Positions 3,848 through 32,597 of a DNA stretch of 64,000 nt are shown here, piece after piece (position 1 is the stretch's first letter; each line of letters starts with the position of its first letter). The position numbers were made by a program, and so were the translations under genes. Below the pieces are notes generated by a model that made no database searches, was not told where the DNA came from, and saw nothing but the letters and a program-made list of their open reading frames with translations. The stretch is from an uncultured Pelagibacteraceae bacterium (GTDB lineage: Bacteria > Pseudomonadota > Alphaproteobacteria > Pelagibacterales > AG-422-B15): assembly GCA_902598405.1 (NCBI GenBank), contig CACKBQ010000004.1, positions 2,756 through 66,755 of the forward strand, read 5' to 3'.

Positions 3848-3851
3848 CTAT

Positions 3852-4316
3852 TTAGTTAATTCCTTTTTGATTATCTTTCTTTAGACTTGGAAGACCTGTG
3901 TCAATATTAAGTCCATTAGGTTCTGAGTAAAGTAATTGTGAATCTATCTCTTCATTTGTTGGAGGAGTTTCATCAGCAAGATTTGGAATATGTTTACCCC
4001 AAGGTTTAGTTGTAATTGGCGATACAAAATTTTTCTCGTGACCATTTCGGAATTTTATTCTCCAAGATATGGTTCCTTTTTCCTCTTCACGTAGTACTCT
4101 TACTTTATGATGCATTGGCGCAAAATCAGCATATCCTCTTGCATCAATAGCATTCTGTGGACATGCTTTGACACATGAATAGCACTCCCAGCACATGTTA
4201 GGCTCTATATTCACGGCACGTCTAGTTTCTTTATCAATATGCATAATGTCTGATGGACATATGTCTACGCAATGACCACAACCATCGCATCTTGTCATGT
4301 ATACAAATGTTGACAT
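3852..4316 (-). CDS. aprB: Adenylyl-sulfate reductase beta subunit
   Basis: CDGCGHCVDICP and CWECYSCVKACP ferredoxin motifs, RGYADFAP; directly upstream of aprA. Confidence 0.97.
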   Translation of the reverse strand: MSTFVYMTRCDGCGHCVDICPSDIMHIDKETRRAVNIEPNMCWECYSCVKACPQNAIDARGYADFAPMHHKVRVLREEEKGTISWRIKFRNGHEKNFVSPITTKPWGKHIPNLADETPPTNEEIDSQLLYSEPNGLNIDTGLPSLKKDNQKGIN

Positions 4317-15966: not shown

Positions 15967-17175
15967 ATGACTGATTGCTATATTTACGACACTGTAAGAA
16001 CCCCTCGTGGTAAGGGTAAAAAAAACGGAACCCTTCATGAAGTAACTGCACTGGAACTTGCAACTCAAGTTTTAAATAATATTAAAGATAGAACAAAAAT
16101 TGATACAGCAGATGTTGATGATGTTGTACTAGGATGTGTTGCGCCAGTTGGTGAACAAGGTGCCTGTATTGCAAGAACAGCAGTGTTAAATGCCGACTAT
16201 GATCAATCAGTTTCAGGTGTTCAGATCAATAGATTTTGTGCATCTGGTTTAGAAGCTACTAATATGGCAGCTGCACAAGTAATGTCTGGACAGTCACAAA
16301 TGTCCATCGGCGGCGGTGTTGAGTCTATGTCTAGAGTTCCAATGGGCTCGGATGGTGGCGCAATGGTTGCTGACCCTTCAGTTGCAATAAAAAATTACTT
16401 TGTTCCACAAGGTATTAGTGCAGACTTAATTGCTACCAAATATGGTTTCTCAAGAGATGATGTAGATAGTTATGCTGTTGAAAGTCAAAAGAGGGCAAAA
16501 AAAGCTTGGGATGAAAAAAGATTTTCAAAATCAATAACACCCGTGAAAGATATCAATGGTTTGACAGTGCTCGATCATGATGAACATATGAGACCTGATG
16601 CTACGATGCAATCACTTGGTTCTTTAGATCCATCTTTTGCAATGATGGGTGAAATGGCAGGTTTTGATGCTACTATTCAACAACGATACCCTGAAGTTGA
16701 AGCTGTTAATCATGTACACACTGCTGGCAATTCGTCAGGAATAGTTGACGGAGCAGCTGGAATACTGCTTGGAAATAAAGAGATGGGTGACAAATATGGT
16801 TTGAAGGCTCGTGCTAAAATCAAAGGTTTTGCTTCAACAGGTTCTGAGCCAAGCATCATGCTAACTGGTCCTGGTTATGTTTCTGATAAACTACTAAAAA
16901 ACTTAGGCATGAGCAAAAGTGACATTGACTTGTGGGAGCTTAACGAAGCATTTGCAGTTGTTGTACTAAGATATATGGAGCATATGGGGATTGATCACTC
17001 AGACATTAACGTAAATGGGGGCGCAATTGCTATGGGGCATCCATTGGGTGCAACTGGAGCTATGATCTTAGGAACTGTACTTGATGAGTTAGAGAGAAGC
17101 AATAAGTCTACTGCTCTTGCCACACTTTGTGTTGGTGGTGGTATGGGAACTGCAACCGTAATTGAGCGCGTTTAA
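15967..17175 (+). CDS. fadA: Acetyl-CoA C-acyltransferase (thiolase)
   Basis: [34 protein letters not shown]; GGAG RBS. Confidence 0.9.
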
Positions 17176-17201
17176 TAACTTAAAATTTTAGGACAATAAT
17201 C

Positions 17202-19394
17202 ATGGCTGATGTAACTTATGAAATAGATAGCGACGGTGTTGCCGTTGTAACGTGGGATTTGGAAAATCGTTCAATGAACGTTTTAAATTTTCAATCTCTT
17301 GGTGAATATAGATCAATTATTGAGAAATTAATCTCAGATGAGTCAGTCAAGGGTATTGTTCTCAGAAGTGCAAAAGATGCATTCATAGCTGGCGCAGATT
17401 TAACTTCATCTGAAGTTTTTGGTTTTGATAGCGTTCAAGAAGATAAAGTTAAAGCTGCAGAAAAAATTTATAATGGCAACATGGACATGCAGCTATTGTT
17501 CAGAAGCATGGAAACATCTGGCAAGCCATTCGTAGCTGCGATAAACGGTCATGCTTTAGGTGGTGGGTTTGAAATATGTCTCGCCTGTCACTATCGTGTA
17601 GCGATAGATAATGATAAAATTCAGATTGGACAACCTGAAGCGAAAGTTGGTTTGATACCTGGTGCAGGTGGAACTCAAAGAGTTCCTAGACTTGCCGGTG
17701 TAACTCAAGAGATAATGGGCTTTCTACTAGCAGGTACTCCGTTTACTCCAAAAAAAGCTCTAAGTGCTGGCCTTATTAACGAAGTCACAGACGCAGATAA
17801 CTTAATTAATGCAGCAAAAAAATATATTGTGGATGGCGGAAAATCAGTTCAACCATGGGACGAAAAAGGTTTTAGGTTTCCGGGGGGCCTTCCTTATACC
17901 CCAAAAGGCGCAATGATTTGGGCTGCGGCATCATCTTCATTGAGAAAAAATTCTTATAATAACTATCCTGCACAAACTGCAATCCTTTCTGCTGTTTATG
18001 AAGGCGTTCAGGTGCCGATTGATGCAGCACTGAGAATTGAAGCGCGTTATTTTACAAAAGTTGTAATGGATCCTAGATCTCAAAATATGGTTCGAAGTCT
18101 TTTTGTAAATATGCAAGCTTTGAGCAAAGGCGCAAGAAGACCAAAAGATTTTGATAAATATGATGTTAAAAAGATTGGAATTCTTGGTGCAGGCTTAATG
18201 GGCGCAGGAATTGCCTATGTTACTGCTAAAGCAGGCATTGAAGTTGTATTAATTGATATGGATCAAGCTGCGGCAGAAAAAGGAAAAGAATATTCTACTA
18301 AGATTTTAGATAAACAATTAAGTAAGAAAAAAACTACTGAAGAAAAAAAAGAAAAGCTATTAAGTCTCATTACGCCTACAACTGATTACTCTCTTCTAAA
18401 GGGCGCAGATCTTATTGTAGAGGCAGTATTTGAAAATAGGGATATAAAAGCAGATGTAACCGCTAAAGCAGAAGCGCAAATATCAGAAACTGCTGTATTT
18501 GGTTCCAATACATCTACTTTGCCAATTACAGGTCTAGCTCAAAATTCTAGCCGTCCTGCAAACTTCATAGGTATTCATTATTTTTCACCAGTAGAGAGAA
18601 TGCCTTTAGTTGAGATCATCATGGGAAAAGAAACTTCTCAGGAAACATTGGCAAAAACAATGGATTACGTTCAAAAAATTAGAAAGACTCCAATTGTTGT
18701 AAACGACAGTAGGGGTTTTTACACTAGTCGTGTATTTGGTACATACACTGGCGAAGGTGTTGCAATGTTAGCAGAAGGTATAAAACCAGCTTTAATTGAA
18801 AATGCTGGTAAAATGACAGGCATGCCAATGGCTCCACTAGCTCTTTCTGATGCTGTGGCATTGGATCTTGCATGGAAAGTAACAACTCAAACGAAAAAGG
18901 ACTTTGAAGCTGAAGGCAAAGAGTTCCCAATAACTCCGATGTATTCAATTATGGAAGAAATGGTTGAAAAGCAAGGCAGGTTTGGGAAGAAAAACAATAA
19001 AGGTTTTTATGAGTATCCTGAAAATGGAAAAAAATACCTATGGCCTGAACTTTCTAACCTATGCAAAGAAAGTGACGATCAACCAGATGTTGAGGAATTA
19101 AAGAAAAGATTTCTATATATACAAGCACTTGAAACAGCTAAATGCTATGAAGAAAACGTACTAACAGATGTTAGAGATGCGGACATTGGCGCAATACTAG
19201 GTTGGGGCATGGCACCATGGACCGGAGGTCCACTATCCTTCATCGATATGGTTGGTGTTAAAGAATTTGTGGCTGAAGCTGATAAACTCGCACAAAAATA
19301 TGGAGAAAGATTTACTCCATGTAAAATGCTTCGTGATATGGCGGCTAAAAATGAGAGTTTCCACAAGGGCGGTAGCTCTAGTCAAGCAGCTTAA
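17202..19394 (+). CDS. fadJ: Fatty acid oxidation multifunctional enzyme (enoyl-CoA hydratase/3-hydroxyacyl-CoA dehydrogenase)
   Basis: Crotonase domain (AGADL, GGGFE, PE..G..PGAGG) plus GAGLMG, EAVFE, SNTS, HYFSPV. Confidence 0.88.
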   Translation: MADVTYEIDSDGVAVVTWDLENRSMNVLNFQSLGEYRSIIEKLISDESVKGIVLRSAKDAFIAGADLTSSEVFGFDSVQEDKVKAAEKIYNGNMDMQLLFRSMETSGKPFVAAINGHALGGGFEICLACHYRVAIDNDKIQIGQPEAKVGLIPGAGGTQRVPRLAGVTQEIMGFLLAGTPFTPKKALSAGLINEVTDADNLINAAKKYIVDGGKSVQPWDEKGFRFPGGLPYTPKGAMIWAAASSSLRKNSYNNYPAQTAILSAVYEGVQVPIDAALRIEARYFTKVVMDPRSQNMVRSLFVNMQALSKGARRPKDFDKYDVKKIGILGAGLMGAGIAYVTAKAGIEVVLIDMDQAAAEKGKEYSTKILDKQLSKKKTTEEKKEKLLSLITPTTDYSLLKGADLIVEAVFENRDIKADVTAKAEAQISETAVFGSNTSTLPITGLAQNSSRPANFIGIHYFSPVERMPLVEIIMGKETSQETLAKTMDYVQKIRKTPIVVNDSRGFYTSRVFGTYTGEGVAMLAEGIKPALIENAGKMTGMPMAPLALSDAVALDLAWKVTTQTKKDFEAEGKEFPITPMYSIMEEMVEKQGRFGKKNNKGFYEYPENGKKYLWPELSNLCKESDDQPDVEELKKRFLYIQALETAKCYEENVLTDVRDADIGAILGWGMAPWTGGPLSFIDMVGVKEFVAEADKLAQKYGERFTPCKMLRDMAAKNESFHKGGSSSQAA

Positions 19395-19443: not shown

Positions 19444-20766
19444 ATGGCAAATACCACACCTACGACTAATTCTTTGGAAAACTATTTTTTACCTTTTACT
19501 GCAAATAAAGACTTTAAGAAGGATCCAAGATTATTAGACAGAGGTGAGGGAGTATACTACTGGAATCATAAGGGCGACCAGGTAATAGATGCTTCTTCAG
19601 GTCTATTTTGTGTTCCATTGGGACATGGCAGAAAAGAAATAGCTGAAGCTGTTCATCAGCAATTATTAAAATTAGATTACTCTCCTAGCTTCCAAGTTTC
19701 TCATTTACCTGCTTTTGCATTAGCTGAAAAGGTAGCAAATCTTCTACCGGGAGATTTAAACAATGTCTTCTTTACAATTTGTGGATCTACTGCAATTGAC
19801 TCTGCAATTAAAATAATTCAGGCTTATCAGCACGCAATTGGACAATCGCAACGTGTAAGGTTTGTGTCAAGAGAACGCGCATACCATGGTGTAAATATCG
19901 GAGGAACCTCATTAAGTGGCATGATTAAAAACCGTGAGATATTTACTGCAACAATGCCTGGAGTTATTCATTTAAGACACACTTGGTTAGAAGAAAATAA
20001 ATATACAAAAGGTCAGCCGCAACATGGAGCTCATCTTGCTGAGGATCTTCAAAGGTTTGTTGAAATGTATGGTCCCGAGTCAATTGCTGGGTGTTTCGTC
20101 GAACCCATTGCTGGTTCAACAGGAACAATTGTTCCCCCTATTGGATATTTAGAGAGGTTGAGAGAGATTTGTGATAAATATGGGATTGTTCTTGTTTTTG
20201 ATGAAGTCATCACTGGTTTTGGTAGAACAGGAAAATCATTTGGGGCTGTAAAATACAATGTACAGCCTGATATGATTACAATGGCAAAGGCAATTACTAA
20301 TGGAGCGCAGCCTATGGGGGCAGTTGGTGTTTCAGATAAAATTTACAATGCGATTGTTGATAATGGACCAGAGCACGGAGTAGAGTTTTTTCACGGATAT
20401 ACTTACTCAGGTCATCCAGCTTGTGTAGCAGCATCTCTTGCTACTTTAGATGTATATGAAAAAGAAGATGTGTTCGCAAGAGCAGAAAAGATGTCGCCAT
20501 ACTTTATAGATGCAGTTTTTGATGCATTTCAGGATATACCAATTGTTACAGACGTAAGAGCGGATGGAATGATGGCTGCTTTTGATCTAGCAGTTGATAA
20601 AAATCCTGGTGTGAGAGGATATGATGCCCAAAAGAAAACATTTGCTAATGGTGTTCACATAAAATTTACTGGGGATGCTGGTATAGTTGCCCCTGCATTA
20701 ATTGCTGAAGAAAAACATATAGATGAAATGCTTCAAAGAATTAAAGAGGTCTTAGTAAAATACTAG
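19444..20766 (+). CDS. Class III aminotransferase, omega-amino acid/beta-alanine:pyruvate type
   Basis: PFTAN..F...PR, RERAYHG, EPIAGSTG, FDEVITGFGR, MAKAITNG, FFHGYTYSGHP. Confidence 0.88.
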   Translation: MANTTPTTNSLENYFLPFTANKDFKKDPRLLDRGEGVYYWNHKGDQVIDASSGLFCVPLGHGRKEIAEAVHQQLLKLDYSPSFQVSHLPAFALAEKVANLLPGDLNNVFFTICGSTAIDSAIKIIQAYQHAIGQSQRVRFVSRERAYHGVNIGGTSLSGMIKNREIFTATMPGVIHLRHTWLEENKYTKGQPQHGAHLAEDLQRFVEMYGPESIAGCFVEPIAGSTGTIVPPIGYLERLREICDKYGIVLVFDEVITGFGRTGKSFGAVKYNVQPDMITMAKAITNGAQPMGAVGVSDKIYNAIVDNGPEHGVEFFHGYTYSGHPACVAASLATLDVYEKEDVFARAEKMSPYFIDAVFDAFQDIPIVTDVRADGMMAAFDLAVDKNPGVRGYDAQKKTFANGVHIKFTGDAGIVAPALIAEEKHIDEMLQRIKEVLVKY

Positions 20767-20774
20767 CAACTTAT

Positions 20775-23219
20775 ATGTCAAAGCTTCCTTCACACACAGA
20801 GGTTGTTATTATTGGAGGAGGCATTGCTGGTACAAGCATTGCATACCACCTTGCAGAGAGAAATGTTCAGGTCACACTTGTTGAAAGAAAGAGTTTAACT
20901 TGTGGCACAACTTGGCATGCAGCTGGATTGGTTGGTCAATTAAGGGCAACAAAAAATCTTACAAAAATGGCCAAGTATTCAACGGAGCTCTATCATAAGC
21001 TTAATCAGAAAGAAGATCTATCTGCTGGATTTTTGATAAATGGTTCAGTTTCTATTGCGGAAAATGAGGGGCGTTATCAAGAAATGAGTAGAGGCGCATC
21101 AATGGGTCGAAGTTATGGCTTAGAAATAAATGAAATTTCAATTGATGAAGTAAAGGAGAAATACCCACTTCTCGATACAAAGCATGTTAAAGGAGCATGG
21201 TTTTTGCCTCAAGACGGGCAAATTAACCCGGTAGATATTACAATGTGCCTTGCAAAAGAAGCAAGACGAATGGGTGCTAACATTATTGAAAATAATAAAG
21301 TCATTTCAATCGAACAAGAAGGTGACAAGGTCACAAAAGTTATTACACAACAAGGTGATATTACATGTGATAAGATTGTTATATCTGCTGGAATGTGGAG
21401 TAGGGAAGTAGGTAAAATGTGCGGGGTGAATATACCTCTGCATGCATGTGAACATTTCTATGCTGTAACTGAATATTCAGAAGATATACCAAAAAATTTA
21501 CCCATCTTAAGAAACCCAGATGCCTATATTTATGTGAAGGAGGACGCCGGAAAACTTTTAATAGGCGCCTTTGAAAAGAAAGCAAAGCCTTGGGGCATGA
21601 ACGGTATTCCTGAAGATTTCGAATTTGATAGTTTACCAAACGACCTTGATCATTTCGGACCTATTTTAATGGAAGCAATGGATAGGCTTCCAATATTGAA
21701 TGAGCTTGGCATTAAAACATATTTTAATGGACCTGAGAGCTTCACACCTGATGATAGGTATTACTTAGGCAAAGTGCCTTACAAAGAAAATATATTTGTT
21801 TCTACTGGCTTCAATTCAATAGGAATTCAATCTGCTGGAGGAGTTGGCAAAGTTATGGCTGATTGGATCATAAATGACAAAAGTAAGATTGATTTGTGGG
21901 ATGTAGATGTCGCTAGAGTATTAGATTTTCAAGATGATAATGAATATTTAAGAGAAAGAAGCTCTGAAACGCTTGGGCTCTTGTATGCTGTGCATTGGCC
22001 ATACTATCAATTTGAAACGTCAAGAAACAAAATTAAATCTCCACTCTATAACCAACTTGAAAAAGAAGGAGCTTGCTTCGGAGAAGCGGCTGGATGGGAA
22101 AGGCCAAATTGGTATACCAATAATGGTCAAAGACCTCAATATCAATACTCGTATCATAAACAAAATTGGTTTGAAAATGTAAGGAGTGAATGTATTGCAG
22201 TAAGAAATGATATTGGCTTATTTGAACTTACATCTTTCTCTAAGTTTATTATTCGAGGAGATGATGTAGTTAATTTTTTAAACTATATGTGTGTAAGTGA
22301 AATGAATGTACCAATTGGGCGAATTATATATACACAAATGTTAAATGACGAAGCTGGAACAGAAGGAGACATTACTTTTACAAGAATAAGTGAAAATGAA
22401 TTTATGTTTGTTACGGGTCCAACTTCACACAATAAAGACTATTACTGGTTATTATCTCATTCAAAAAAATTTAAAAATATAGAAATTATTGATGTTACTA
22501 AACAATATGGCTGTCTTTCAATAATGGGACCCAATTCAAGGGAGCACCTTCAAAGAATATGTAATGAGGATATTTCAAATGAAACATTACCGTTTGGATT
22601 TTCTAAGAAAATAAATCTTGTTGGCGCTGAATGTAGGCTTCATAGAATTACATACGTTGGCGAGTTGGGTTTTGAAATATACATCCCTTATAATAATTTG
22701 GAAAAAGTATTTGATGTTGTTTATGCAAAAAATGGAAAGAGCCCAGTAAAACTTGCAGGCTATCATGCACTAAATTCACTGAGAATGGAGAAAGGGTATC
22801 TTCATTGGGGGCATGATATTGGAGTTGAGGAAAACCCTTTTGAAGCGGGTGTTGGATTTTGTGTAAACTTTAATAAGAAGATGCCTTTTTTAGGACAGGC
22901 AGCACTTGAAGAAAAGAAGAAGTCTGGTCTTAGTAAAAGAAAAGTAAATTTTGCATTATCTAACAATGACTTATTGATTTATCACAATGAGCCAATCTAT
23001 TTTGACGGTAAGATTGTTGGTGAAATTTCTTCAGGTATGTATGGTTTCTATTTAGACAAATCCCTAGGCATGGGTTACATTTCAAACAATGATAGTTACT
23101 CTGTTGAGGAAATGATGAGTCATCAAAAATTTGAAATTGAAGTTGCTGAAACTAAATATTCTGCAGAGGGGTCAATAAATTGTTTTTATGATCCAGGCAG
23201 AGAAAAAATATTAGTGTAG
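20775..23219 (+). CDS. GcvT-family flavoprotein (sarcosine/dimethylglycine dehydrogenase-like)
   Basis: IIGGGIAG, GTTWHAAG, NGPESFTPD, GWERP, TYVGELGFE, LRMEKGY; 814 aa FAD plus folate-binding architecture. Confidence 0.92.
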   Translation: MSKLPSHTEVVIIGGGIAGTSIAYHLAERNVQVTLVERKSLTCGTTWHAAGLVGQLRATKNLTKMAKYSTELYHKLNQKEDLSAGFLINGSVSIAENEGRYQEMSRGASMGRSYGLEINEISIDEVKEKYPLLDTKHVKGAWFLPQDGQINPVDITMCLAKEARRMGANIIENNKVISIEQEGDKVTKVITQQGDITCDKIVISAGMWSREVGKMCGVNIPLHACEHFYAVTEYSEDIPKNLPILRNPDAYIYVKEDAGKLLIGAFEKKAKPWGMNGIPEDFEFDSLPNDLDHFGPILMEAMDRLPILNELGIKTYFNGPESFTPDDRYYLGKVPYKENIFVSTGFNSIGIQSAGGVGKVMADWIINDKSKIDLWDVDVARVLDFQDDNEYLRERSSETLGLLYAVHWPYYQFETSRNKIKSPLYNQLEKEGACFGEAAGWERPNWYTNNGQRPQYQYSYHKQNWFENVRSECIAVRNDIGLFELTSFSKFIIRGDDVVNFLNYMCVSEMNVPIGRIIYTQMLNDEAGTEGDITFTRISENEFMFVTGPTSHNKDYYWLLSHSKKFKNIEIIDVTKQYGCLSIMGPNSREHLQRICNEDISNETLPFGFSKKINLVGAECRLHRITYVGELGFEIYIPYNNLEKVFDVVYAKNGKSPVKLAGYHALNSLRMEKGYLHWGHDIGVEENPFEAGVGFCVNFNKKMPFLGQAALEEKKKSGLSKRKVNFALSNNDLLIYHNEPIYFDGKIVGEISSGMYGFYLDKSLGMGYISNNDSYSVEEMMSHQKFEIEVAETKYSAEGSINCFYDPGREKILV

Positions 23220-23230
23220 AAAGTATAGTT

Positions 23231-25009
23231 ATGACTAAAATGACGACAGAAGAAGCATTTGTAAAAGTTTTGCAAAAACACGGAATACAGCACGCATTTG
23301 GAATAATTGGATCTGCATTCATGCCAATTTCCGATTTATTTCCAAAGGCAGGTATTACTTTCTGGGACGTAGCTCATGAAAATAACGGCGGTATAATCGC
23401 AGACGGCTATACTAGAGCGACAGGAAAAATGTCTATGTGCATTGCACAAAATGGCCCAGGCATTACTAACTTTGTTACGCCAATAAAAACTGCATACTGG
23501 AATCACACTCCAATGCTTCTAGTTACTCCACAAGCGGCTAATAAAACTATAGGACAAGGTGGCTTTCAGGAAGTAGAACAAATGGCATTGTTTAAAGATA
23601 TGGTTTGCTACCAGGAGGAAGTGAGAGATCCTACTAGAGTTGCCGAAGTACTAAATCGAGTAATTTCAAAAGCATTCAAAGGTTCTGCTCCAGCACAAAT
23701 AAATATTCCTCGCGATATGTGGACACAAGTTATAGATATCGAGTTACCGCCAATAATAAAATTTGAAAGACCATCAGGAGGAATCGAAGCAATAAAAGAA
23801 GCGGCAAAACTTCTATCTAATGCTGACTTTCCAGTAATATTATCAGGAGCAGGGGTGGTCTTAGCTGATGCAATCAATGACTGCAAAGCTTTAGCTGAAA
23901 AATTAGACTCACCTGTTGCTTCTGGCTATCAACATAATGATAGTTTTCCAGGTAGTCATCCACTTGCAGTGGGGCCTTTAGGTTATAACGGCTCAAAAGC
24001 TGCTATGGAGTTAATTTCTAAAGCAGACGTTGTTCTTGCCTTAGGAACTAGACTAAACCCATTTTCAACATTACCTGGTTACGGAATAGATTATTGGCCA
24101 AAAGATGCAGCTATTATTCAGGTTGATATAAATTCTGATAGAATTGGATTAACAAAAAAAGTTTCAGTAGGTATATGCGGTGATGCAAAACAAGTTGCTC
24201 AGCAATTATTAAATAGTCTTTCTCCTGAAGCGGGAAACAAAAATAGAGATGAGAGAAAAGCTCTAATTCATCAAACCAAATCTGCTTGGTTACAAACATT
24301 GAGTAGTATGGATCATGAAGATGACGATCCTGGAACGTCATGGAATGAGGAAGCTAGAGTAAGGGATGCAGATCGCATGTCTCCTCGCATGGCTTGGAGG
24401 GCTATACAGAATGGCTTACCAAAAAATGCAATAATTTCATCCGACATAGGCAATAACTGCGCAATAGGAAATGCTTATCCAACATTTGAGGAAGGTAGAA
24501 AATATTTAGCTCCAGGTCTTTTTGGGCCTTGCGGTTATGGCTTCCCTTCAGTTTTAGGAGCTAAAATAGGCTGTCCAAATATTCCTGTTGTTGGTTTCGC
24601 TGGAGATGGAGCTTTTGGTATAAGCATGAACGAAATGACATCTTGTGCTAGGGAAGAATGGCCTGCAATAACAATGGTGATATTTAGAAACTATCAGTGG
24701 GGCGCCGAAAAAAGAAATTCGATATTATGGTATGACAATAATTTCGTCGGTACCGAACTAGATCCTGAATTAAGCTACGCAAAGGTTGCAGAAGGCTGCG
24801 GATTGAAGGGTGTTATAGTTAAAACCATGGATGAGCTGACAAATTCACTCAGAGCTGCGTGTGAAGAACAGTCAAATGGAGTTACAACTTTTATTGAAGT
24901 TATTTTAAATCAAGAGCTTGGGGAACCTTTCAGACGAGATGCAATGAAAAAACCAGTTGAAGTTGCCGGCATCAATCCTGATGATATGAGCCAAGAGCAG
25001 CACGGTTAA
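23231..25009 (+). CDS. xsc: Sulfoacetaldehyde acetyltransferase
   Basis: MTTEEAFVKVL, AFGIIGSA, AQNGPGITN, GYNGSKAAM, DIGNNC, GDGA, NYQWGAEK, LGEPFRRDAM. Confidence 0.96.
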   Translation: MTKMTTEEAFVKVLQKHGIQHAFGIIGSAFMPISDLFPKAGITFWDVAHENNGGIIADGYTRATGKMSMCIAQNGPGITNFVTPIKTAYWNHTPMLLVTPQAANKTIGQGGFQEVEQMALFKDMVCYQEEVRDPTRVAEVLNRVISKAFKGSAPAQINIPRDMWTQVIDIELPPIIKFERPSGGIEAIKEAAKLLSNADFPVILSGAGVVLADAINDCKALAEKLDSPVASGYQHNDSFPGSHPLAVGPLGYNGSKAAMELISKADVVLALGTRLNPFSTLPGYGIDYWPKDAAIIQVDINSDRIGLTKKVSVGICGDAKQVAQQLLNSLSPEAGNKNRDERKALIHQTKSAWLQTLSSMDHEDDDPGTSWNEEARVRDADRMSPRMAWRAIQNGLPKNAIISSDIGNNCAIGNAYPTFEEGRKYLAPGLFGPCGYGFPSVLGAKIGCPNIPVVGFAGDGAFGISMNEMTSCAREEWPAITMVIFRNYQWGAEKRNSILWYDNNFVGTELDPELSYAKVAEGCGLKGVIVKTMDELTNSLRAACEEQSNGVTTFIEVILNQELGEPFRRDAMKKPVEVAGINPDDMSQEQHG

Positions 25010-25626
25010 ACTCTTTGAAGAGTGTGCATTCGCGACCTTGCACTATCTTTGTGGTTAGGCAAAGCAATAAAAGGTTTTGATAATTTGATATAATTGTACT
25101 CATTCGATCTTTTTTCTAATTCGCGCTTAAATCCAAGTTTTGAGAAAATTTTTTCTGAAATAGAGAGTATGAGATAACCCCCAGGCTTTGTTAATCTAAT
25201 TAACTCCTTTATTGATGACGGTCCTACATGACCTGACGTCAAAACACCTGTGCATATAACTAAATCAAATTGATTTCCCTTTAAACTTGTTTTCTTGCTT
25301 AACGACTCGCAAACCAGTTTTTTATATATTTTTTTAGAGCGAGCTACTCTTAACATATCTTTTGAATAATCTATCCCCACGATATTATTGTAACGAAGAG
25401 CTTTTAAAACTTCTGCGACATAGCCAGTACCACACCCTGCATCAAGAATTTTTGAGCCCTTCTTTACATTTATATACTTTTCTAGAATCTGTTTAACTTT
25501 AATTGGGTAAGCGTAGCCCCAGTCTTTTAGGTCACTGTCATAACCGTCAGCCCATTCCCTATAATGTTTTTTTAGGCGGGTTGAATTCTTTTCCTTATAA
25601 ACAATGTTTAGCCATTTTTTACCCAT
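25006..25626 (-). CDS. Class I SAM-dependent methyltransferase
   Basis: Y..WA..YD, ILDAGCGTG, GIDYS..ML, TKPGG. Confidence 0.88.
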   Translation of the reverse strand: MGKKWLNIVYKEKNSTRLKKHYREWADGYDSDLKDWGYAYPIKVKQILEKYINVKKGSKILDAGCGTGYVAEVLKALRYNNIVGIDYSKDMLRVARSKKIYKKLVCESLSKKTSLKGNQFDLVICTGVLTSGHVGPSSIKELIRLTKPGGYLILSISEKIFSKLGFKRELEKRSNEYNYIKLSKPFIALPNHKDSARSRMHTLQRV

Positions 25627-25681
25627 TATGAGCGCTTTCCTCTTTTTAATATTTAATAAATAGTATAAAAATTAGTCATAT

Positions 25682-26797
25682 ATGTTGATCGGTATCCCTA
25701 AAGAAATTAAGCCACAAGAAAATAGAGTAGGCCTAACTCCTGAAAGTGTAAAGGAACTTATTGATGATGGTAATGAAGTAATCATTGAAAGAACAGCCGG
25801 TCAGGGGTCAGGTTTTGATGATCAAAATTATAACGATGTTGGGGCGACAGTTTTTGAAAATGCGCAAGATATTTTTGATCGCGCTGAGTTGATCATTAAA
25901 GTTAAAGAACCTCAAGAAGATGAAATTAAAAAGTTGAAAGATGGTCAGCTGCTATTCACATATTTACACCTTGCTGCAAGTAAAGCATTGACAGAAGGAT
26001 TAATGAATTCTGGAGCAACATGTATAGCTTACGAAACTATAACCGATAAAAATGGAAGGCTTCCATTACTTGCTCCGATGAGTGAAGTAGCTGGTAGAAT
26101 TTCAATACAAGCAGGAGCCAGAGCTCTTGAAATGACAAACAAAGGAAGAGGCGTCTTATTATCTGGTGCAACAGGAGCACCGCCAGCTAAAGTTGTAATT
26201 ATTGGATGTGGAGTTGTAGGGTTTAATGCCGCCCTTATTGCTCATGGAATGAAATCAAATGTAACGCTTATTGATCAATCTGAAGCAAGACTCAATGAAT
26301 TAAAAAATTATTTTAATAATGAAGTCAATACATCAATATCAACACCTGAAACTATAGCTGAAGAAGTTAAAAACTGTGACTTGCTAATAGGAGGTGTGCT
26401 GATCCCGGGTTCTAGTGCGCCCAAATTAGTATCGGATGAACTAGTTTCTAAAATGAAAAAAGGAGCAGCCATTGTGGATGTCGCAATAGATCAAGGTGGG
26501 TGCATTGAAACCAGCAAGCCTACTACTCACGCAGACCCGGTTTATATTAAACATGACGTGGTACATTACTGTGTAACAAATATGCCAGGATGCGTTCCCC
26601 GTACATCTACCATCTCTCTAAATCAAGCTACATTACCGTTCGTAAAAAAATTAGCGAGAGATGGGTTAAAAAAAGCGTTATCTGATGATAGGAATTTTAT
26701 GAATGGGCTAAATGTTATAAAAAATAAGTGCACTCAAGCAGATGTAGCAAGAGATCTAAACATAGCATTTTCAAACCCTGAAAATTTAGTTGCTTAA
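25682..26797 (+). CDS. ald: Alanine dehydrogenase
   Basis: IGIPKEIK..ENRV, KVKEP, FTYLHLA, LLAPMSEVAGR, DVAIDQGG, NMPG.VPRTST. Confidence 0.95.
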   Translation: MLIGIPKEIKPQENRVGLTPESVKELIDDGNEVIIERTAGQGSGFDDQNYNDVGATVFENAQDIFDRAELIIKVKEPQEDEIKKLKDGQLLFTYLHLAASKALTEGLMNSGATCIAYETITDKNGRLPLLAPMSEVAGRISIQAGARALEMTNKGRGVLLSGATGAPPAKVVIIGCGVVGFNAALIAHGMKSNVTLIDQSEARLNELKNYFNNEVNTSISTPETIAEEVKNCDLLIGGVLIPGSSAPKLVSDELVSKMKKGAAIVDVAIDQGGCIETSKPTTHADPVYIKHDVVHYCVTNMPGCVPRTSTISLNQATLPFVKKLARDGLKKALSDDRNFMNGLNVIKNKCTQADVARDLNIAFSNPENLVA

Positions 26798-27840
26798 ATA
26801 CTTTTTGCGGCCTTTGACAGGTTTTTTAATTTAAGCATTGCCATATCTCTACTTAAATATCCAAGACCACAATCAGGAGCTGCTATAAGTCTCTCTTTAT
26901 CAATATGGTTTAGACAGGACAGCAATCTATCCCTTATCACATCAATTTCTTCTACTTCACTTGAGGCAACCTTTATTAACCCAAATATTATTTTTTTTGA
27001 TTTATACAACTCAAGTAGTTTTAAATCATTGTGTCTATGAGCATCTTCAATAGATATGGTATCAATCAGACTATTCTCTAAGGCATCTGCAATTTCAAAA
27101 TAACTTATTAACGGCGCTTTAGGATAATCATCTGCATCAATTTTATCTGGATATCCACAACATATATGAGTTATCTTTTCACAGTCTGTAACTCCATGAA
27201 AACATCTTTCAAGATTATCTATTCCAAATTCGATTGCCTCTTTTGATTTTCTTGCAAATAAAGGTTCGTCTACTTGTATATATTTACAGCCAGAACTGAC
27301 TAATGACTTTATTTCTTTATTTATTGCCTCCCCTAAATCTACTCCTAACATTTTATGATCATTATAAAATTCATCAGCAATGGTATCTGTGATAGTCAAT
27401 GGTCCAGGTATTGTAACTTTAATAGGATTTTTTGATATTGACTGATTAATTTCGTATTCTTTATTTAAAAAAGACCCAATAAATTGAATTTTATTTGTGA
27501 TTGTTGGAAGCCAACAATCATAATTACCTGTTCTCGCTGTTTTCTTTGTTAACTTTTCAAAATCGATCCCACCTAGATGCCTGCAGTGATAATGAATATA
27601 ATTTTCTCGTCTAACTTCACCGTCTGTAATAATATCAATACCGCACTCAATTTGATCTTTAATAATACTTTCTGAGGCAAGTTTTATTTGGACCTCATAT
27701 TCTTCTCCCATTTTTAGTTTTGCCTGTTCCCACTTAGAAGTTGGGTATTCAGCATCTGTTCCTTTCTCATCTTTGAACCAATCAGGTAAAGTTAAGAAAT
27801 CTGGCTTTGGGTAGGCGCCAATTGTAGTTGTTAAAATCAT
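26794..27840 (-). CDS. Cobalamin-independent methionine synthase catalytic-domain-only family protein
   Basis: TTIGAYPKP, TDGEVRR, PGPLT, QVDEP, HICCG and PDCGLG zinc ligands; 348 aa. Confidence 0.88.
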   Translation of the reverse strand: MILTTTIGAYPKPDFLTLPDWFKDEKGTDAEYPTSKWEQAKLKMGEEYEVQIKLASESIIKDQIECGIDIITDGEVRRENYIHYHCRHLGGIDFEKLTKKTARTGNYDCWLPTITNKIQFIGSFLNKEYEINQSISKNPIKVTIPGPLTITDTIADEFYNDHKMLGVDLGEAINKEIKSLVSSGCKYIQVDEPLFARKSKEAIEFGIDNLERCFHGVTDCEKITHICCGYPDKIDADDYPKAPLISYFEIADALENSLIDTISIEDAHRHNDLKLLELYKSKKIIFGLIKVASSEVEEIDVIRDRLLSCLNHIDKERLIAAPDCGLGYLSRDMAMLKLKNLSKAAKSI

Positions 27841-28111: not shown

Positions 28112-29257
28112 GTGAAGAAAATTAATAAAACTCTTAAGGCTGCAAAAGTTTCAAGAAGATCAGTCCTGAAAGGTGCAGCTGCAACTGGTGCAGCAGCAGC
28201 TATTGGGCCTTGGTATATTCCAAACGCTTTTGCTGCTCCCGTTGTTAATGTTTTAATGTGGGGCGAATATTTGCCGGACTCAGTAGTTGCAGATTTCAAA
28301 GCAAAAACTGGAATTACTGTTAACCATACTAAAATAGGAGATAACGGTGAAATTATATCAAAAATGAAAGCTGGTGGTGGAGCCGGTTATGACCTTGCAA
28401 GTCCAACAAACATGAGAGCTTTGCAATGGGCTGACCTTGGCGTACTTGCCCCATTTGATATGAATCGAATAAACACAAGCGCTGTTAACCCAGGAATGCT
28501 AGCTGTTGGTGAGCGTGACTGGAATTTTGGTGGAAAAGGATCTCACTGGGTACCACAACTTTGGGGTACTGAGTCGATTTCTTGGAGAACCGACAAATGG
28601 CAACCCGATGGACTTCCAAGCTTTGGAGATATTTGGGAGCCTAATCCTGGAATAGATGGCGCATTCATGATGGGTAGAACATACTCAATGATGACTGGAT
28701 GTGGTATTTGGATGCATCATCAAGGCAAAATGGATTTCTGGTCTTCGTACAACGATGAAGATACAATGAGAAAGAATTGGGAAACAATTACTGACTATTG
28801 TATTTCAAAAAAAGGAAATCTTGTTAAATTTTGGTCTGGTGCCGATCCTCAGAAACAAGGATTCACATCTGATGGTGTTGTCGTAGGACAAACTTGGGAT
28901 GGCCCTATTGCAGCAATGATGAAAGCTGGAGAACCAGTTGCGTACCAAACTACTGATGAGGGTGCGTTGGCATGGATCGACGGTATAACAATGTCTGCAA
29001 AAGCAGAAAACATTGATGAAGCTTATGAGTTAATCAATTACAGTTTTACACCAGAAGTAGGCGGCCAAACTGTGAATGAAATCGGTTATAACTCAGCTGT
29101 TAATGGAGCTTCAGACCATTACTCAGATGAAACTAAAGCTTTAGCAAAAGCAATATACCCGGGGGACACTTCGACCAAGTTAAATCCTTGGCCACCAGAA
29201 CCGCCATGGTATGCTGATGCAAGAGCTGAATACGCTAACAAATTTGAAACAGCGTAA
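28112..29257 (+). CDS. Polyamine-type ABC transporter substrate-binding protein with Tat signal (PotD/PotF family)
   Basis: GAGGAG RBS, GTG start, SRRSVLKG, WGEY, WGT, WDG, EGALAWID. Confidence 0.88.
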   Translation: MKKINKTLKAAKVSRRSVLKGAAATGAAAAIGPWYIPNAFAAPVVNVLMWGEYLPDSVVADFKAKTGITVNHTKIGDNGEIISKMKAGGGAGYDLASPTNMRALQWADLGVLAPFDMNRINTSAVNPGMLAVGERDWNFGGKGSHWVPQLWGTESISWRTDKWQPDGLPSFGDIWEPNPGIDGAFMMGRTYSMMTGCGIWMHHQGKMDFWSSYNDEDTMRKNWETITDYCISKKGNLVKFWSGADPQKQGFTSDGVVVGQTWDGPIAAMMKAGEPVAYQTTDEGALAWIDGITMSAKAENIDEAYELINYSFTPEVGGQTVNEIGYNSAVNGASDHYSDETKALAKAIYPGDTSTKLNPWPPEPPWYADARAEYANKFETA

Positions 29258-29280
29258 TTAGTTCTCTAGGATTAGTTATT

Positions 29281-29313
29281 AAAAGCGCCCAAGGCATTGT
29301 CTTGGGCGTTTTT
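29281..29313 (+). terminator. Intrinsic terminator/stabilising hairpin after the binding-protein gene
   Basis: AAAAGCGCCCAAGGC-ATT-GTCTTGGGCGTTTTT: GC-rich stem with a T tract. Confidence 0.75.
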
Positions 29314-29355
29314 ATTGAATCGTGTTTTTCAGTTAAACCATTATAATTTGTATCA

Positions 29356-30453
29356 ATGAGCGCAGATGTAGAGTTAAGTGATGTTTCGGTAACATTTGGC
29401 AGTTTTTATGCCGCCAAGAATGTCAATGTGAAAGTAAATGGAGGTGAGTTCTTCAGCTTCTTAGGACCTTCAGGCTGCGGAAAGACTACTCTGTTAAGGG
29501 CTATATCTGGATTTCAAGAACCTTCTGAAGGTAAAGTGCTTATTGACAATAAAGATATGTCTGGAATTGGTCCAAATAAAAGACCAACCGCGTTAATATT
29601 TCAAAACTTAGCTCTGTTTCCTCTCATGAGTGTATCAGAAAATATTGCATTTTCCCTTGAAGTAAGGGGCGTATCAAAAGAAGAAAGAAAAAAAAGAGCG
29701 GATGAACTTTTGGAATTGATAGCATTAGAGGGACAAGGAGATAAAAAAGTTCATCAACTCTCTGGAGGTCAAAAACAAAGAGTAGCCATTGCAAGAGCTT
29801 TAGCTGTTGAGCCAAAAGTTCTTCTTTTAGATGAACCATTGTCTGCCTTGGATTTAAAACTTCGTCAAAGAATGAGAACCGAACTTAGAGAAATACAAAA
29901 AAGAGTAAACATTACATTTATTTATATTACGCACGATCAAGGAGAAGCCCTAACAATGTCTGATCGAATAGCGGTCATGAATGAAGGAGAGCTTGAGCAA
30001 ATTGGAAAATGCGACGAAGTTTATAACAATCCATTAACACCATTTGTTGCAACATTCGTTGGTGAGAATAATCCTTTATATGGAAAAGTTACAGGTATTG
30101 AGGGAGATAAAGCTAAAATTGAAACTGCTGATGGGCAATATTTAGCAACGATGAATGAAAGCAAAAAGTTAAATATTGGAGATGAGTCAATTGCATTTGT
30201 TAGACCTGAGTCTTTGTTTATACCAAGAGATGGCGACAACTTTGATAATAAAATTGATGTGAATATTGAAAGTTTTGAATTTGAAGGAAATTTAAAAAAC
30301 TTTTACGCAAGCCTTAAATCGGGAGCAAAAATTAAATTTTCAGTACCAAACGCCATAGATACATCCTCTATAACTTCAGGATCGTCAATCGTACTAGGTT
30401 TTGAATCTTCAAAATCAGTAATATTACCCAAAGCATCTCTAGCTATAGATTAA
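29356..30453 (+). CDS. potA: Polyamine ABC transporter ATPase (PotA family)
   Basis: GPSGCGKT, FQNLALFP, LSGGQKQR, LDEPLSALD, THDQGEAL. Confidence 0.85.
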   Translation: MSADVELSDVSVTFGSFYAAKNVNVKVNGGEFFSFLGPSGCGKTTLLRAISGFQEPSEGKVLIDNKDMSGIGPNKRPTALIFQNLALFPLMSVSENIAFSLEVRGVSKEERKKRADELLELIALEGQGDKKVHQLSGGQKQRVAIARALAVEPKVLLLDEPLSALDLKLRQRMRTELREIQKRVNITFIYITHDQGEALTMSDRIAVMNEGELEQIGKCDEVYNNPLTPFVATFVGENNPLYGKVTGIEGDKAKIETADGQYLATMNESKKLNIGDESIAFVRPESLFIPRDGDNFDNKIDVNIESFEFEGNLKNFYASLKSGAKIKFSVPNAIDTSSITSGSSIVLGFESSKSVILPKASLAID

Positions 30454-30456
30454 GTC

Positions 30457-31386
30457 ATGAACAATTTTTTATTTACTCAACCATTTTTTAAGAAAAACGG
30501 TAAGGCAGTTGCGATATATTTTTTAGTAGCAATAATATTTTGGTTTGTTTTCTTAGTTATAATTCCACAATTTTATATGTTGGATTTATCATTTAGAACC
30601 AACGTCCCCCCTTTAGCAAGAGGTGGACCTGAAGATTATTATACTTTTGAACACTATAGCCACTTTATATTTGGATCTAAGACAGCCACTGATGCTTTTA
30701 ACTTTGTTGATTTAGGTGTATTTGGAAGAACTATTTTTGTTTCAATGCTTGTCACAATTGCAAATCTGCTATTTTGCTATCCAATAGCATTTTATATAGC
30801 GAAAATTGCAAATCCTAGTACCGCTAGACTTCTTATTGTTTCTCTGATTATTCCTTTCTGGATTAATGAATTGCTTAGATCATTCGCATTGAGAATTTTG
30901 TTTGCAAACGAAGGTGTAATTAACAATTTCTTGACTGGGGTTGGATTACTCGATCAAGGAATCCTATTTATCACTTATGATATCGGCTTATATACCGGCT
31001 TAATATACGCTTATATTTTGCTGATGATGTTCCCTCTCTATAATGCAATCGAAAGTTTGGACATTAATCAAATCGAGGCAGCAAAAGATTTAGGTTCCTC
31101 GTCTTTTAGAACACATTGGAGAATAGTTATTCCTCATGCAAAACCAGGTATCGTATCTGGTTGTACTATGGTTTTTATGTTAACTGTTGGAGCATTAGCA
31201 ACACCAGTTGTTTTAAGTAGTCCTAATACTTTATGGTTTCCTCAACTGATATATCAATGGTTTAACATGAATGACAACTGGTCTAGAGGATCAGCTTATT
31301 CAATTATTTTGTTAATAGTATCTGTTATTTTTGTGCTCACAATGATGCGAATATTTAAAGTTAGAATTGGAGAAATTATCAAGTGA
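30457..31386 (+). CDS. potB: Polyamine ABC transporter permease (PotB family)
   Basis: CYPIAFY, IPFWINELLR, EAAKDLG. Confidence 0.82.
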   Translation: MNNFLFTQPFFKKNGKAVAIYFLVAIIFWFVFLVIIPQFYMLDLSFRTNVPPLARGGPEDYYTFEHYSHFIFGSKTATDAFNFVDLGVFGRTIFVSMLVTIANLLFCYPIAFYIAKIANPSTARLLIVSLIIPFWINELLRSFALRILFANEGVINNFLTGVGLLDQGILFITYDIGLYTGLIYAYILLMMFPLYNAIESLDINQIEAAKDLGSSSFRTHWRIVIPHAKPGIVSGCTMVFMLTVGALATPVVLSSPNTLWFPQLIYQWFNMNDNWSRGSAYSIILLIVSVIFVLTMMRIFKVRIGEIIK

Positions 31387-32591
31387 GACCGAGTTATTTT
31401 ATAAATTTCATGATGGGAATATATATTTTTATATTTTTCGCATACTTATTTGGGCCGTTGATCATCATGAGCATTACAGCATTCAACTCTGCAGAATTTC
31501 CATCGATCACACCTTGGGAATGTTTTAGTTTTAGATGGTTTAATGAAGGTAAAATTGCTTATGATGGACAACATCTGGCAGGACTTTTATCTGACTGGAG
31601 ACTTCACGATGGTATTATTAGCAGTTTGATTATAGGTGCAGGAGTTGTAACTCTCTCCGTACCGATTGGAATGGCCGCAGCAATAGTATTAACTCAAGTG
31701 CGTTCGCAGTTGAGGGATATTTATTACTCAATTTCGATTATGCCCGTTTTATTTCCTGGTGTGATAATTGGTATTTCAACAGTCGTTTTATGGGACCGAA
31801 TAGCAGGCTTAGGAGGAGAGGGGTTCATTGCAGATATTGGAAGAAACGGAATATTTCTAACAATTTTGGCTCAAACCTGTTTTATATCTACTTATTGTTT
31901 TTTAATATTTGTAGCAAGACTTCAAAGATTTGATCAGACTCAAGAAGAGGCAGCTTTAGACCTTGGAGCGTCGCAAACTCAAGTATTTTTTAAAATTTTA
32001 GTTCCTTACTTAAGCCCCGCAATAGCATCGGCTGCAGTAATTGCTTTTTTATTTTCATTTGAAAATTATAACACGACTGTATTTAGCATTTTATCGGATC
32101 AAACATTAACAACTGTAATTGCATCAAAAGTAAGGCTGGGAATAAGTCCTGCATTGAGTGCATTAGCTTTAACAATAATAGCGTTAACTATTATAGCTGC
32201 AGTTACCTATGAGGTTTTACGAAGAAGAGCAGAAAAACGATATGCAGAGTCTCAGGAAAAGTTTGTAAAAGAAAAAGCAGCAGACAATAGAATTAATAAA
32301 AAATATAAAGCTGGTTTTAAAATTCCAAAGGGAATTGCCGCTATATTGTTAATAGTGGTCTTTGCTACTTACGGAGCTACCCAAGTAGTGAAAAATGATC
32401 TTTACGGACAATCATGTATTGATGCTGCTGATAAGGAGAAAAAATCCAAATTTCTTGAACAATTGCAAACTTTAGAGTCTAATGAACTTACTGATGAAGA
32501 ACTTTCTGGAGGGTCCTTAGGTGGCAATCAGGATTACGGAGATATATTTGGAGACCCATCATTATTCCAAGATTTTGGAGGATTTGATTAA
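31383..32591 (+). CDS. potC: Polyamine ABC transporter permease (PotC family) with C-terminal extension
   Basis: F.YL..PL, FS.RWF, EEAALDLGAS, SFE; 402 aa; GTG overlapping the potB stop. Confidence 0.8.
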   Translation: MRPSYFINFMMGIYIFIFFAYLFGPLIIMSITAFNSAEFPSITPWECFSFRWFNEGKIAYDGQHLAGLLSDWRLHDGIISSLIIGAGVVTLSVPIGMAAAIVLTQVRSQLRDIYYSISIMPVLFPGVIIGISTVVLWDRIAGLGGEGFIADIGRNGIFLTILAQTCFISTYCFLIFVARLQRFDQTQEEAALDLGASQTQVFFKILVPYLSPAIASAAVIAFLFSFENYNTTVFSILSDQTLTTVIASKVRLGISPALSALALTIIALTIIAAVTYEVLRRRAEKRYAESQEKFVKEKAADNRINKKYKAGFKIPKGIAAILLIVVFATYGATQVVKNDLYGQSCIDAADKEKKSKFLEQLQTLESNELTDEELSGGSLGGNQDYGDIFGDPSLFQDFGGFD

Positions 32592-32597
32592 TAGATT

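Follow-up and report, generated by a model that had tools for sequence, protein, structure and literature searches.

SAR11 bacteria are the most abundant marine heterotrophs, and taurine is among their main substrates. We analyzed a stretch of 64,000 nucleotides (the window; contig C4, positions 2756 to 66755) from the 1.05-Mb genome of an uncultured SAR11 bacterium, which is 81% complete. Our subject is a flavoprotein gene that lies inside a predicted taurine operon, and for which the demethylation of N-methyltaurine is a candidate function.

Genes of the operon

Three co-directional genes on the forward strand form the core of the locus. The first encodes a class-III omega-amino acid:pyruvate aminotransferase of the AptA type (AT; 19444 to 20766, 440 amino acids, from the open reading frame call and profiles), the second encodes the flavoprotein (20775 to 23219, 814 amino acids), and the third is xsc, for sulfoacetaldehyde acetyltransferase (23231 to 25009, 592 amino acids). 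They are separated by gaps of 8 and 11 nucleotides. The alanine dehydrogenase gene ald (25682 to 26797, forward strand) lies one gene further on: a gene for an S-adenosylmethionine-dependent methyltransferase (206 amino acids; Pfam Methyltransf_11/25/31) intervenes on the reverse strand (25006 to 25626). The initial annotation had described this arrangement, and the open reading frame calls place the genes at exactly the coordinates it gave. Genes for a thiolase and a FadJ-like protein lie upstream in the same direction (15967 to 19394).

The AT matches Pfam Aminotran_3, and its best NCBIfam match is the equivalog for the AptA omega-aminotransferase (NF052567; 563 bits versus a cut-off of 500). 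Its NCBIfam matches include no Tpa model. The nearest solved structures (4b98 and 3a8u) are beta-alanine:pyruvate or omega-amino acid:pyruvate transaminases, and JGI labels its relatives "beta-alanine--pyruvate transaminase," in agreement with the type proposed in the initial annotation. Xsc is above the cut-offs of two equivalogs (TIGR03457, 962 bits versus 676; NF005713, 1035 bits versus 620), and tblastn found a single copy of xsc in the genome. Ald is also above its equivalog cut-off (TIGR00518, 471 bits versus 392). By family membership, the unit is a predicted taurine-type dissimilation operon, with an omega-amino acid:pyruvate aminotransferase, Xsc, and a nearby Ald. Adjacency to xsc alone suggests that the AT is a functional equivalent of taurine:pyruvate aminotransferase.

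No pta or tauABC genes are present among the genes of the window, according to the list of open reading frames and Pfam and NCBIfam profile scans, as the initial annotation had noted. No regulator gene lies beside the operon within the window. When we searched the whole (81% complete) genome with tblastn, we found no homolog of TauA, TauC, TRAP, SoeA, or YeiH, and a Pta-like gene (36% identity) on contig C9. Neither the window nor eight related loci yielded a riboswitch in Rfam scans, and a scan of the window for promoters and terminators gave no more sites than in shuffled sequences. Contigs from RNA libraries (metatranscriptomes) in all four of four runs, from four studies, cover parts of the AT, the flavoprotein, and xsc, and one of these contigs spans the junction of the AT and the flavoprotein. 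Because contigs reveal neither a single transcript nor a level of expression, we take them to show presence and give them no functional weight.

The flavoprotein resembles folate-linked demethylases

The flavoprotein combines DAO (230 bits), FAO_M (53 bits), GCV_T (245 bits), and GCV_T_C (53 bits) domains in one chain of about 800 amino acids. This is the architecture of the family that includes dimethylglycine dehydrogenase (DMGDH), sarcosine dehydrogenase (SarDH), dimethylglycine oxidase (DMGO), and 4-methylaminobutanoate oxidase (MABO). The protein does not reach any NCBIfam equivalog. In a search of the PDB, where the family was represented by DMGDH and DMGO, it aligned end to end with human DMGDH (5l46; 448 bits) and scored 336 bits against DMGO. 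The covalent-FAD histidine motif is present (CGTTWHAAGL) and aligns to 5l46. Its histidine is H48, which we take to be the site of the covalent 8-alpha-FAD linkage, as in the work on DMGO and DMGDH. W47, H48, A49, A50, and G51 are invariant in an alignment of 58 sequences (alignment A1). The AlphaFold model of the flavoprotein has a pLDDT of 92 and a pTM of 0.91. Close relatives are named 4-methylaminobutanoate oxidase in JGI/KEGG-style annotation.

The window genome encodes three paralogs with fused DAO and GcvT parts. Gene trees separate three groups: group A, with the flavoprotein and its orthologs; group B, which is DMGDH-like and is usually in tandem with A; and group C (100% support), with the copy on contig C6 of the window genome and copies from the genomes G260 (locus L118) and G436 (locus L120). 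Against human DMGDH, B scores 624 bits, C scores 615 bits, and A scores 448 bits.

The flavoprotein gene is an accessory insert in a conserved SAR11 locus

We queried 151 genomes of the SAR11 order (including G111, which is flagged as unpublished and on which none of our claims depends) with the flavoprotein and with Xsc. Orthologs of the flavoprotein at 65% identity or above were present in 28 genomes, all from the family of the window genome (f1). In 26 of the 28, the flavoprotein gene is directly beside xsc, in the order AT, flavoprotein, xsc. Because this order recurs so consistently, the arrangement is more than chance. The other two genomes (G104 and G116) have no match to xsc, and are 61% and 53% complete. 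Among the 46 other genomes of the window's genus, 22 have the ortholog, 17 have only paralogs, and 7 have no match (E ≤ 1e-100). Of these 46 genomes, 37 have xsc.

The surrounding gene order is conserved: hydrolase, patatin, TANGO2, thiolase, FadJ, AT, flavoprotein (if present), xsc, methyltransferase, ald, MetE-like gene, ABC transporter. The methyltransferase gene is at the same spot between xsc and ald in L075, L079, L080, L082, and L083. In L079 to L082, the flavoprotein is present at 65 to 84% identity; in L074 and L075, it is absent and the AT gene abuts xsc. Because the synteny is otherwise the same in loci with and without the gene, the flavoprotein gene is an accessory insert, with an insertion/deletion polymorphism at the junction of AT and xsc. 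The initial annotation had proposed both that the flavoprotein gene was inserted between these two genes and that the AT was the partner of xsc; the loci without the insert bear out both proposals.

In one single-cell genome (L083, 6074 to 12099; G036), the flavoprotein and ald genes are each broken into two open reading frames. The match to the flavoprotein contains four TGA and two TAA codons, and the neighboring genes are 99 to 100% identical to the window. Either the assembly is in error here or both genes have recently decayed.

Repeated junctions of group A with taurine genes

Outside SAR11, we found group A beside taurine genes in several arrangements. Linkage was the reason for picking some of these loci, and no frequency can be drawn from them. 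In G260, the genes for a PuuR-like regulator, B, A, Xsc (867 bits on TIGR03457), and an AT run on one strand; ackA is divergent, and formate dehydrogenase genes lie about 1 kb past the AT, on the opposite strand. In both G436 and contig L141, B and A are followed by pta and xsc, an AptA-like AT, and soe-like genes. In G285, a class-III AT, pta, and a soeA-like gene lie beside an MttB-A-B cluster. An island in G364 contains xsc, pta, yeiH, a soeA-like gene, a DAO gene, and tauCBA-like genes, and then PuuR, B, A, and a MocR regulator. In G829 and G800, which belong to one genus (g344), the order is xsc, pta, AT, A, and then a MocR regulator; a direct repeat that precedes xsc is conserved. Contig L145 has tauA, tauB, tauC, A, a MocR regulator, and then a different class-III AT, Ald, and Xsc (1015 bits); we saw no clear repeat upstream of its tauA. 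Finally, contig L194 has xsc, GFA, and A. Homologs of the window's AT, at 52 to 58% identity, are beside xsc in G260, G436, G829, and G800.

When linkage to taurine genes was mapped onto the tree, it required eight changes, and at least six of these changes are forced by well-supported branches. By this reconstruction, orthogroup A joined taurine genes separately at least six times. Linkage to xsc among relatives, on which the initial annotation had staked its proposal, holds throughout family f1, for orthologs with as little as 65% identity, and is seen again in other lineages.

We call the transporters "tauABC-like" because all of their components score below the equivalog cut-offs, although their best-matching families are those of the taurine ABC transporter. 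In the related loci, the scores (with cut-offs) are 130 (304) for TauA and 240 (342) for TauC from L145, and 141 (304), 278 (357), and 236 (342) for the components from G364.

Several of the genomes with such junctions have another locus that is suited to glycine betaine. On contig C6 of the window genome, the group-C gene sits with an OpuAC-type transporter, a PF02574 (BHMT-type) gene, and soxB-soxD-soxA. By its gene content, this cluster is a complete predicted glycine betaine module, apart from the operon's flavoprotein. The window genome (G000), G260, and G436 each have such a separate module with group C and sox genes (L089, L118, and L120, respectively). Therefore, sarcosine oxidation seems to be already provided for by soxBDA in these three genomes. 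In genus g344 (G829 and G800), a betaine-type cluster of B, PF02574, and MttB lacks A, and the sole copy of A (E ≤ 1e-200) is in the xsc operon. When we compared the promoter of xsc with that of the B cluster in G829 and G800, we did not find a shared TauR-like motif; a divergent regulator of its own accompanies the B cluster.

The third paralog in the window genome is on contig C21 (L090, 843 to 11781). Its DAO-GcvT flavoprotein is divergent, and it is accompanied by BKACE, a 3-hydroxyacyl-CoA dehydrogenase, a GBBH-like dioxygenase of the TauD family, an M24 peptidase, a second PF02574 methyltransferase, and an OpuAC-type ABC transporter. This cluster looks like a carnitine/butyrobetaine-type one.

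A proposed route from N-methyltaurine to taurine

Given the neighboring genes, N-methyltaurine is the most consistent substrate for the flavoprotein. We give about even chances to the idea that it is a folate-linked demethylase that converts N-methyltaurine to taurine. In this route, the covalently flavinylated DAO domain would oxidize N-methyltaurine at the methyl carbon, and tetrahydrofolate (THF), bound by the GcvT domain, would take up the iminium carbon to give taurine and 5,10-methylene-THF. The AptA-type AT would then convert taurine and pyruvate to sulfoacetaldehyde and alanine, Xsc would convert sulfoacetaldehyde and phosphate to acetyl phosphate and sulfite, and Ald would regenerate pyruvate from alanine, with release of ammonium. 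Acetyl phosphate may go to the product of the Pta-like gene on contig C9, and sulfite may go to the products of aprBA (2012 to 4316).

The flavoprotein may be promiscuous for small anionic N-methyl amines. Dimethyltaurine is a less likely substrate for this single enzyme, because the second paralog (B) is present where a dimethyl step is implied.

Methylated taurines do occur in marine organisms: a red alga contains mono-, di-, and trimethyltaurine as well as taurine itself (PMC10538540, Table 2), and methylated taurines are named as tubeworm osmolytes in a title cited by PMC11685487. According to a recent preprint, the taurine enzymes of SAR11 have not been worked out (bioRxiv 10.1101/2024.12.10.627767). 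The initial annotation knew of no described folate-linked methyltaurine demethylase, and our searches of the literature collection at our disposal likewise found none.

A broader proposal, which we consider speculative and unlikely, is that the A/B pair of marine alphaproteobacteria (the SAR11_1221 type and the SPO3396/SPO3400 type), at present annotated as sarcosine and dimethylglycine dehydrogenases, are folate-linked demethylases for N-methyltaurine and N,N-dimethyltaurine. With the MttB-family or PF02574 methyltransferases encoded nearby, they would convert trimethyltaurine to dimethyltaurine, methyltaurine, and then taurine, which would feed a Tpa-like AT, Xsc, and Pta. SAR11 would have kept the last demethylase only.

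If the flavoprotein does act on N-methyltaurine, then it is an undescribed folate-linked entry into organosulfonate catabolism and a link between sulfonate metabolism and one-carbon metabolism. It would also correct the use of this "sarcosine dehydrogenase" as a marker for glycine betaine turnover in ocean omics.

Sarcosine as a possible substrate

A different explanation is that the flavoprotein is a sarcosine dehydrogenase, which would complete the catabolism of glycine betaine by converting sarcosine and THF to glycine and methylene-THF. That it adjoins AT and xsc would then reflect co-expressed catabolism of osmolytes, or an AGXT2-like AT that acts on the glycine/glyoxylate pair. We consider this explanation to be unlikely, yet several observations favor it and weigh against N-methyltaurine.

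First, the phylogeny did not give a distinct xsc-linked GcvT subfamily: the flavoprotein is an ortholog of literature-predicted sarcosine dehydrogenases. The taurine-linked copies have no clade of their own and are scattered among betaine-linked orthologs in the trees, which rules out a separate xsc-linked clade of paralogs. We also compared the sequences at the 211 columns for which 35 group-A copies without a taurine link show conservation of 95% or more. The copies from G436, G260, and G364 are essentially identical to the non-taurine copies at these columns, while genus g344 differs at 4 of them and SAR11 family f1 at about 25. Just two columns, A158 and A343, are altered in each of SAR11 f1, Pelagibacter, and genus g344. 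Across the 211 columns, we found no convincing shared signature or active-site difference in the taurine-linked copies; their conserved core is unaltered, as expected for a sarcosine dehydrogenase.

Second, most copies of group A are not next to xsc. Of the 400 alphaproteobacterial genomes that we sampled, 66 have A (E ≤ 1e-235). An Xsc match occurs in 31 of these 66 and in 13 of the 334 genomes without A. The two genes are adjacent in just 2 of the 31 genomes that have both (G436 and G260); in G364, they are 17 kb apart. In a sample of the phylum, A and xsc are within 3 kb of each other in 2 of the 15 genomes with both (G829 and G800, from one genus).

Third, most orthologs outside SAR11 lie in modules that point to the demethylation of betaines. 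In one common context, seen in families f95 and f211 (taken to be Rhodobacteraceae- and Rhizobiaceae-like), A is grouped with a PuuR-like regulator, GFA, B, and a PF02574 gene; the other common context is an MttB-family gene, B, and A. Copies with B and either PF02574 or MttB include L097, L098, L100, L101, L107, L109, L129, and L137, and also L068, L070, L071, L091, L096, and L139. Either arrangement (B-PF02574-A or MttB-B-A) looks like the stepwise conversion of a betaine to the dimethyl compound, the monomethyl compound, and the amine. In the window genome, the flavoprotein is not associated with glycine betaine genes (BHMT/MtgB or DMGDH), but orthologs are (for instance, in L097 to L101). 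Also, a class I/II aminotransferase is beside A in two loci of f211 (L101 and L109), so the product that is transaminated need not be taurine.

Fourth, the orthologs have been predicted to act on glycine betaine intermediates. Two papers predict sarcosine and dimethylglycine dehydrogenases, namely SAR11_1221 and SAR11_1253 of strain HTCC1062 (PMC3160333) and SPO3396 and SPO3400 of Ruegeria pomeroyi (PMC4744692); SAR11_1221 and SPO3396 are the ones predicted to be sarcosine dehydrogenase. We presume that SPO3396 and SPO3400 are an A/B pair from the make-up of their cluster and from their lengths (816 and 815 amino acids); SPO3398 is listed as a homocysteine S-methyltransferase in a table of PMC4809877. 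In the proteome of R. pomeroyi on glycine betaine, SPO3396 was modestly upregulated (log2 ratio +1.41; class B only), and SPO3400 was not significantly changed (+0.40), according to Dataset S1 of PMC12478193, for which we covered seven of the eight "aminomethyl transferase" rows.

Two other points weigh against N-methyltaurine as the substrate. In the window genome (81% complete), tblastn did not recognize a taurine transporter. And another way to degrade this compound reportedly exists: Weinitschke et al., in 2006, are said to have described an (N-methyl)taurine dehydrogenase in Alcaligenes faecalis MT-1 and Paracoccus versutus N-MT, which releases methylamine and needs no aminotransferase.

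Against sarcosine, it would be left unexplained why A shares operons with xsc, tauABC, or pta in six or more lineages; even if the flavoprotein is just a sarcosine dehydrogenase, some account is needed of why taurine operons have captured it again and again. BHMT, a DMGDH-type protein, and soxBDA are already together in the window genome, and the 17 of 46 genomes of its genus with paralogs only do without A. In the same R. pomeroyi data, the strongly induced proteins were three other paralogs: SPO0544 (+5.5), SPO1628 (+5.0), and SPO0635 (+4.8) (log2; PMC12478193). And close relatives are named 4-methylaminobutanoate oxidase, not sarcosine dehydrogenase, in JGI/KEGG-style annotation.

Other N-methyl amines

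Two loci combine related flavoproteins with other enzymes. In L117 (4223 to 14436; contig C4 of G364), genes for an MttB-family protein, B-like and A-like proteins, a class-III AT, and an aldehyde dehydrogenase lie on one strand. This fits a cascade from the betaine of an omega-amino acid to the dimethyl compound, the monomethyl compound, the amine, the aldehyde, and the acid. In L062 (6261 to 13001; G278), the group-A ortholog is flanked by a PbfA-type (R)-1-hydroxy-2-aminoethylphosphonate ammonia-lyase (680 bits versus a cut-off of 525) and by a methylmalonate-semialdehyde dehydrogenase, which hints that this lineage uses N-methylated aminophosphonates. As predicted from their gene content, L117 and L062 show demethylation before transamination as a general logic of the family. 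In L073, a TauD-like gene adjoins the ortholog (254 versus 313, the taurine dioxygenase cut-off), which is a hint only.

These loci bear on the idea that the flavoprotein demethylates some other N-methyl omega-amino compound that is accepted by a broad AT, with Xsc as merely a neighbor that shares the AT. The candidates are N-methyl-beta-alanine, 4-methylaminobutanoate, N-methylhypotaurine, and N-methyl-2-aminoethylphosphonate. The AT is nearest to beta-alanine:pyruvate enzymes, and relatives of the flavoprotein are named 4-methylaminobutanoate oxidase by JGI; L117 and L062 show such partners, and the best model for a nearby ABC ATPase in the window is a putative aminoethylphosphonate transporter, albeit below the cut-off. 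However, the operon lacks a malonate- or succinate-semialdehyde dehydrogenase or a phosphonatase, Xsc is the sole aldehyde-consuming enzyme that it encodes, and the recurrent partners elsewhere (xsc, pta, soe-like, and tauABC-like genes) are sulfonate-specific. We consider this explanation to be improbable.

The Pelagibacter copies

We examined three Pelagibacter genomes and two metagenome contigs. The best Pelagibacter homolog of the flavoprotein is 41 to 44% identical and is monophyletic with the f1 copies in the trees. In G011 and G071, an operon of AT, Ald, and the flavoprotein is flanked by tauABC-like genes (L077 and L084), and G011 also has a TRAP system. The best matches of these tauABC-like genes are the taurine ABC models, under the cut-off (75 to 83 versus 304). 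In G031, the flavoprotein is 4.9 kb from xsc, and the metagenome contigs (L177 and L179) repeat the Pelagibacter pattern. The Pelagibacter ortholog (L077, L078, and L084) differs at about 45 of the 211 conserved columns, including residues that are invariant in both groups A and B (K673S, Y391F, W441Y, W273A, and R537C, in the numbering of the window's protein). This suggests that the Pelagibacter ortholog has changed its function or its partner.

Loci in Pelagibacter and elsewhere also contain DAO-only FAD oxidoreductases of 434 to 460 amino acids (L076, 9825 to 11129; L078, 13465 to 14769; L087, 13530 to 14912; L179, 521 to 1801). In Pelagibacter, they adjoin xsc- or suyAB-like genes; in G364, the neighbors are tauCBA-like genes; and on one contig, the position is between ald and the flavoprotein gene. 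The best matches for the G364 copy are AmaA L-pipecolate oxidase (144.5 bits) and TIGR03329, a putative aminophosphonate oxidoreductase (142.9 bits), both far under the cut-off. Possibly, these proteins act directly as (N-methyl)taurine dehydrogenases, in the manner of PbfC/PbfD.

Other genes in the window

Two reverse-strand genes interleave with xsc and ald: the methyltransferase gene (25006 to 25626) and a short MetE-like (Meth_synt_2) gene (26794 to 27840). Both are kept at 62 to 73% identity across the SAR11 family. Just past ald is a co-directional run (28112 to 33557, forward strand) that is conserved in the SAR11 synteny. It encodes the parts of an ABC transporter (an ATPase, two permeases, and a PotD/PhnS-like binding protein that carries a TAT signal) together with a ureohydrolase of the agmatinase family (307 bits versus a cut-off of 302); the ATPase is the one whose best model is the putative aminoethylphosphonate transporter. 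Agmatine, taurocyamine, guanidinopropionate, or a similar guanidino compound could be imported and hydrolyzed by the products of this run.

On the reverse strand, 15 kb upstream of the xsc operon, are aprA/aprB-like genes (2012 to 4316), with FAD_binding_2 and Succ_DH_flav_C domains and with APS-reductase_C and Fer4 domains. We take these to be a possible sink in SAR11 for the sulfite that is released by Xsc. Another organosulfur-related function in the window is a sulfatase-family gene (9100 to 10803, forward strand), which lies upstream of the operon and beside genes for FAA-hydrolase, FAD monooxygenase, CMD, and GST-like proteins.

Comparison with known systems

Taurine dissimilation by Tpa, Ald, and Xsc, sometimes with Pta, is known from Rhodobacterales, Rhizobiales, and Bilophila and is controlled by TauR. 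The preprint bioRxiv 10.1101/2024.12.10.627767 summarizes the Tpa-Ald-Xsc pathway. The window shares with this system a pyruvate-dependent class-III aminotransferase, Ald, and Xsc, and the related loci add pta, tauABC-like genes, a MocR-type regulator, and sulfite dehydrogenase-like genes. In contrast to this system, the window's AT is of the AptA/beta-alanine type and is probably not in the KEGG group for Tpa, an extra folate-linked flavoprotein is inside the operon, and pta, tauABC, and a regulator are absent from the window.

The flavoprotein itself shares four domains, the FAD-histidine motif, and a folate-binding GcvT half with DMGDH, SarDH, DMGO, and 4-methylaminobutanoate oxidase (solved structures in this family: 5l46, 4pab, 4p9s, and 1pj5). 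Unlike those enzymes, its neighbors are sulfonate genes and not glycine betaine genes, and group A is less similar to DMGDH than groups B and C are.

The nearest printed analog is the oxidation of N-methyl-aminoethylphosphonate by PbfC/PbfD, which has a different cleavage (PMC10590968). There too, an FAD enzyme is added to a cluster for an aminoethyl compound and admits an N-methylated substrate. As described in that paper, PbfC and PbfD have a DAO domain only, cleave on the ethyl side to give phosphonoacetaldehyde and methylamine, and do not act on sarcosine or taurine. In contrast, the GcvT domain of the window's flavoprotein implies that the methyl group would be removed to folate and that the primary amine would be left.

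The route attributed to Weinitschke et al. has the same proposed substrate as ours and also ends in sulfoacetaldehyde and Xsc. The difference is that the route that we propose would pass through taurine, with the one-carbon unit going to folate.

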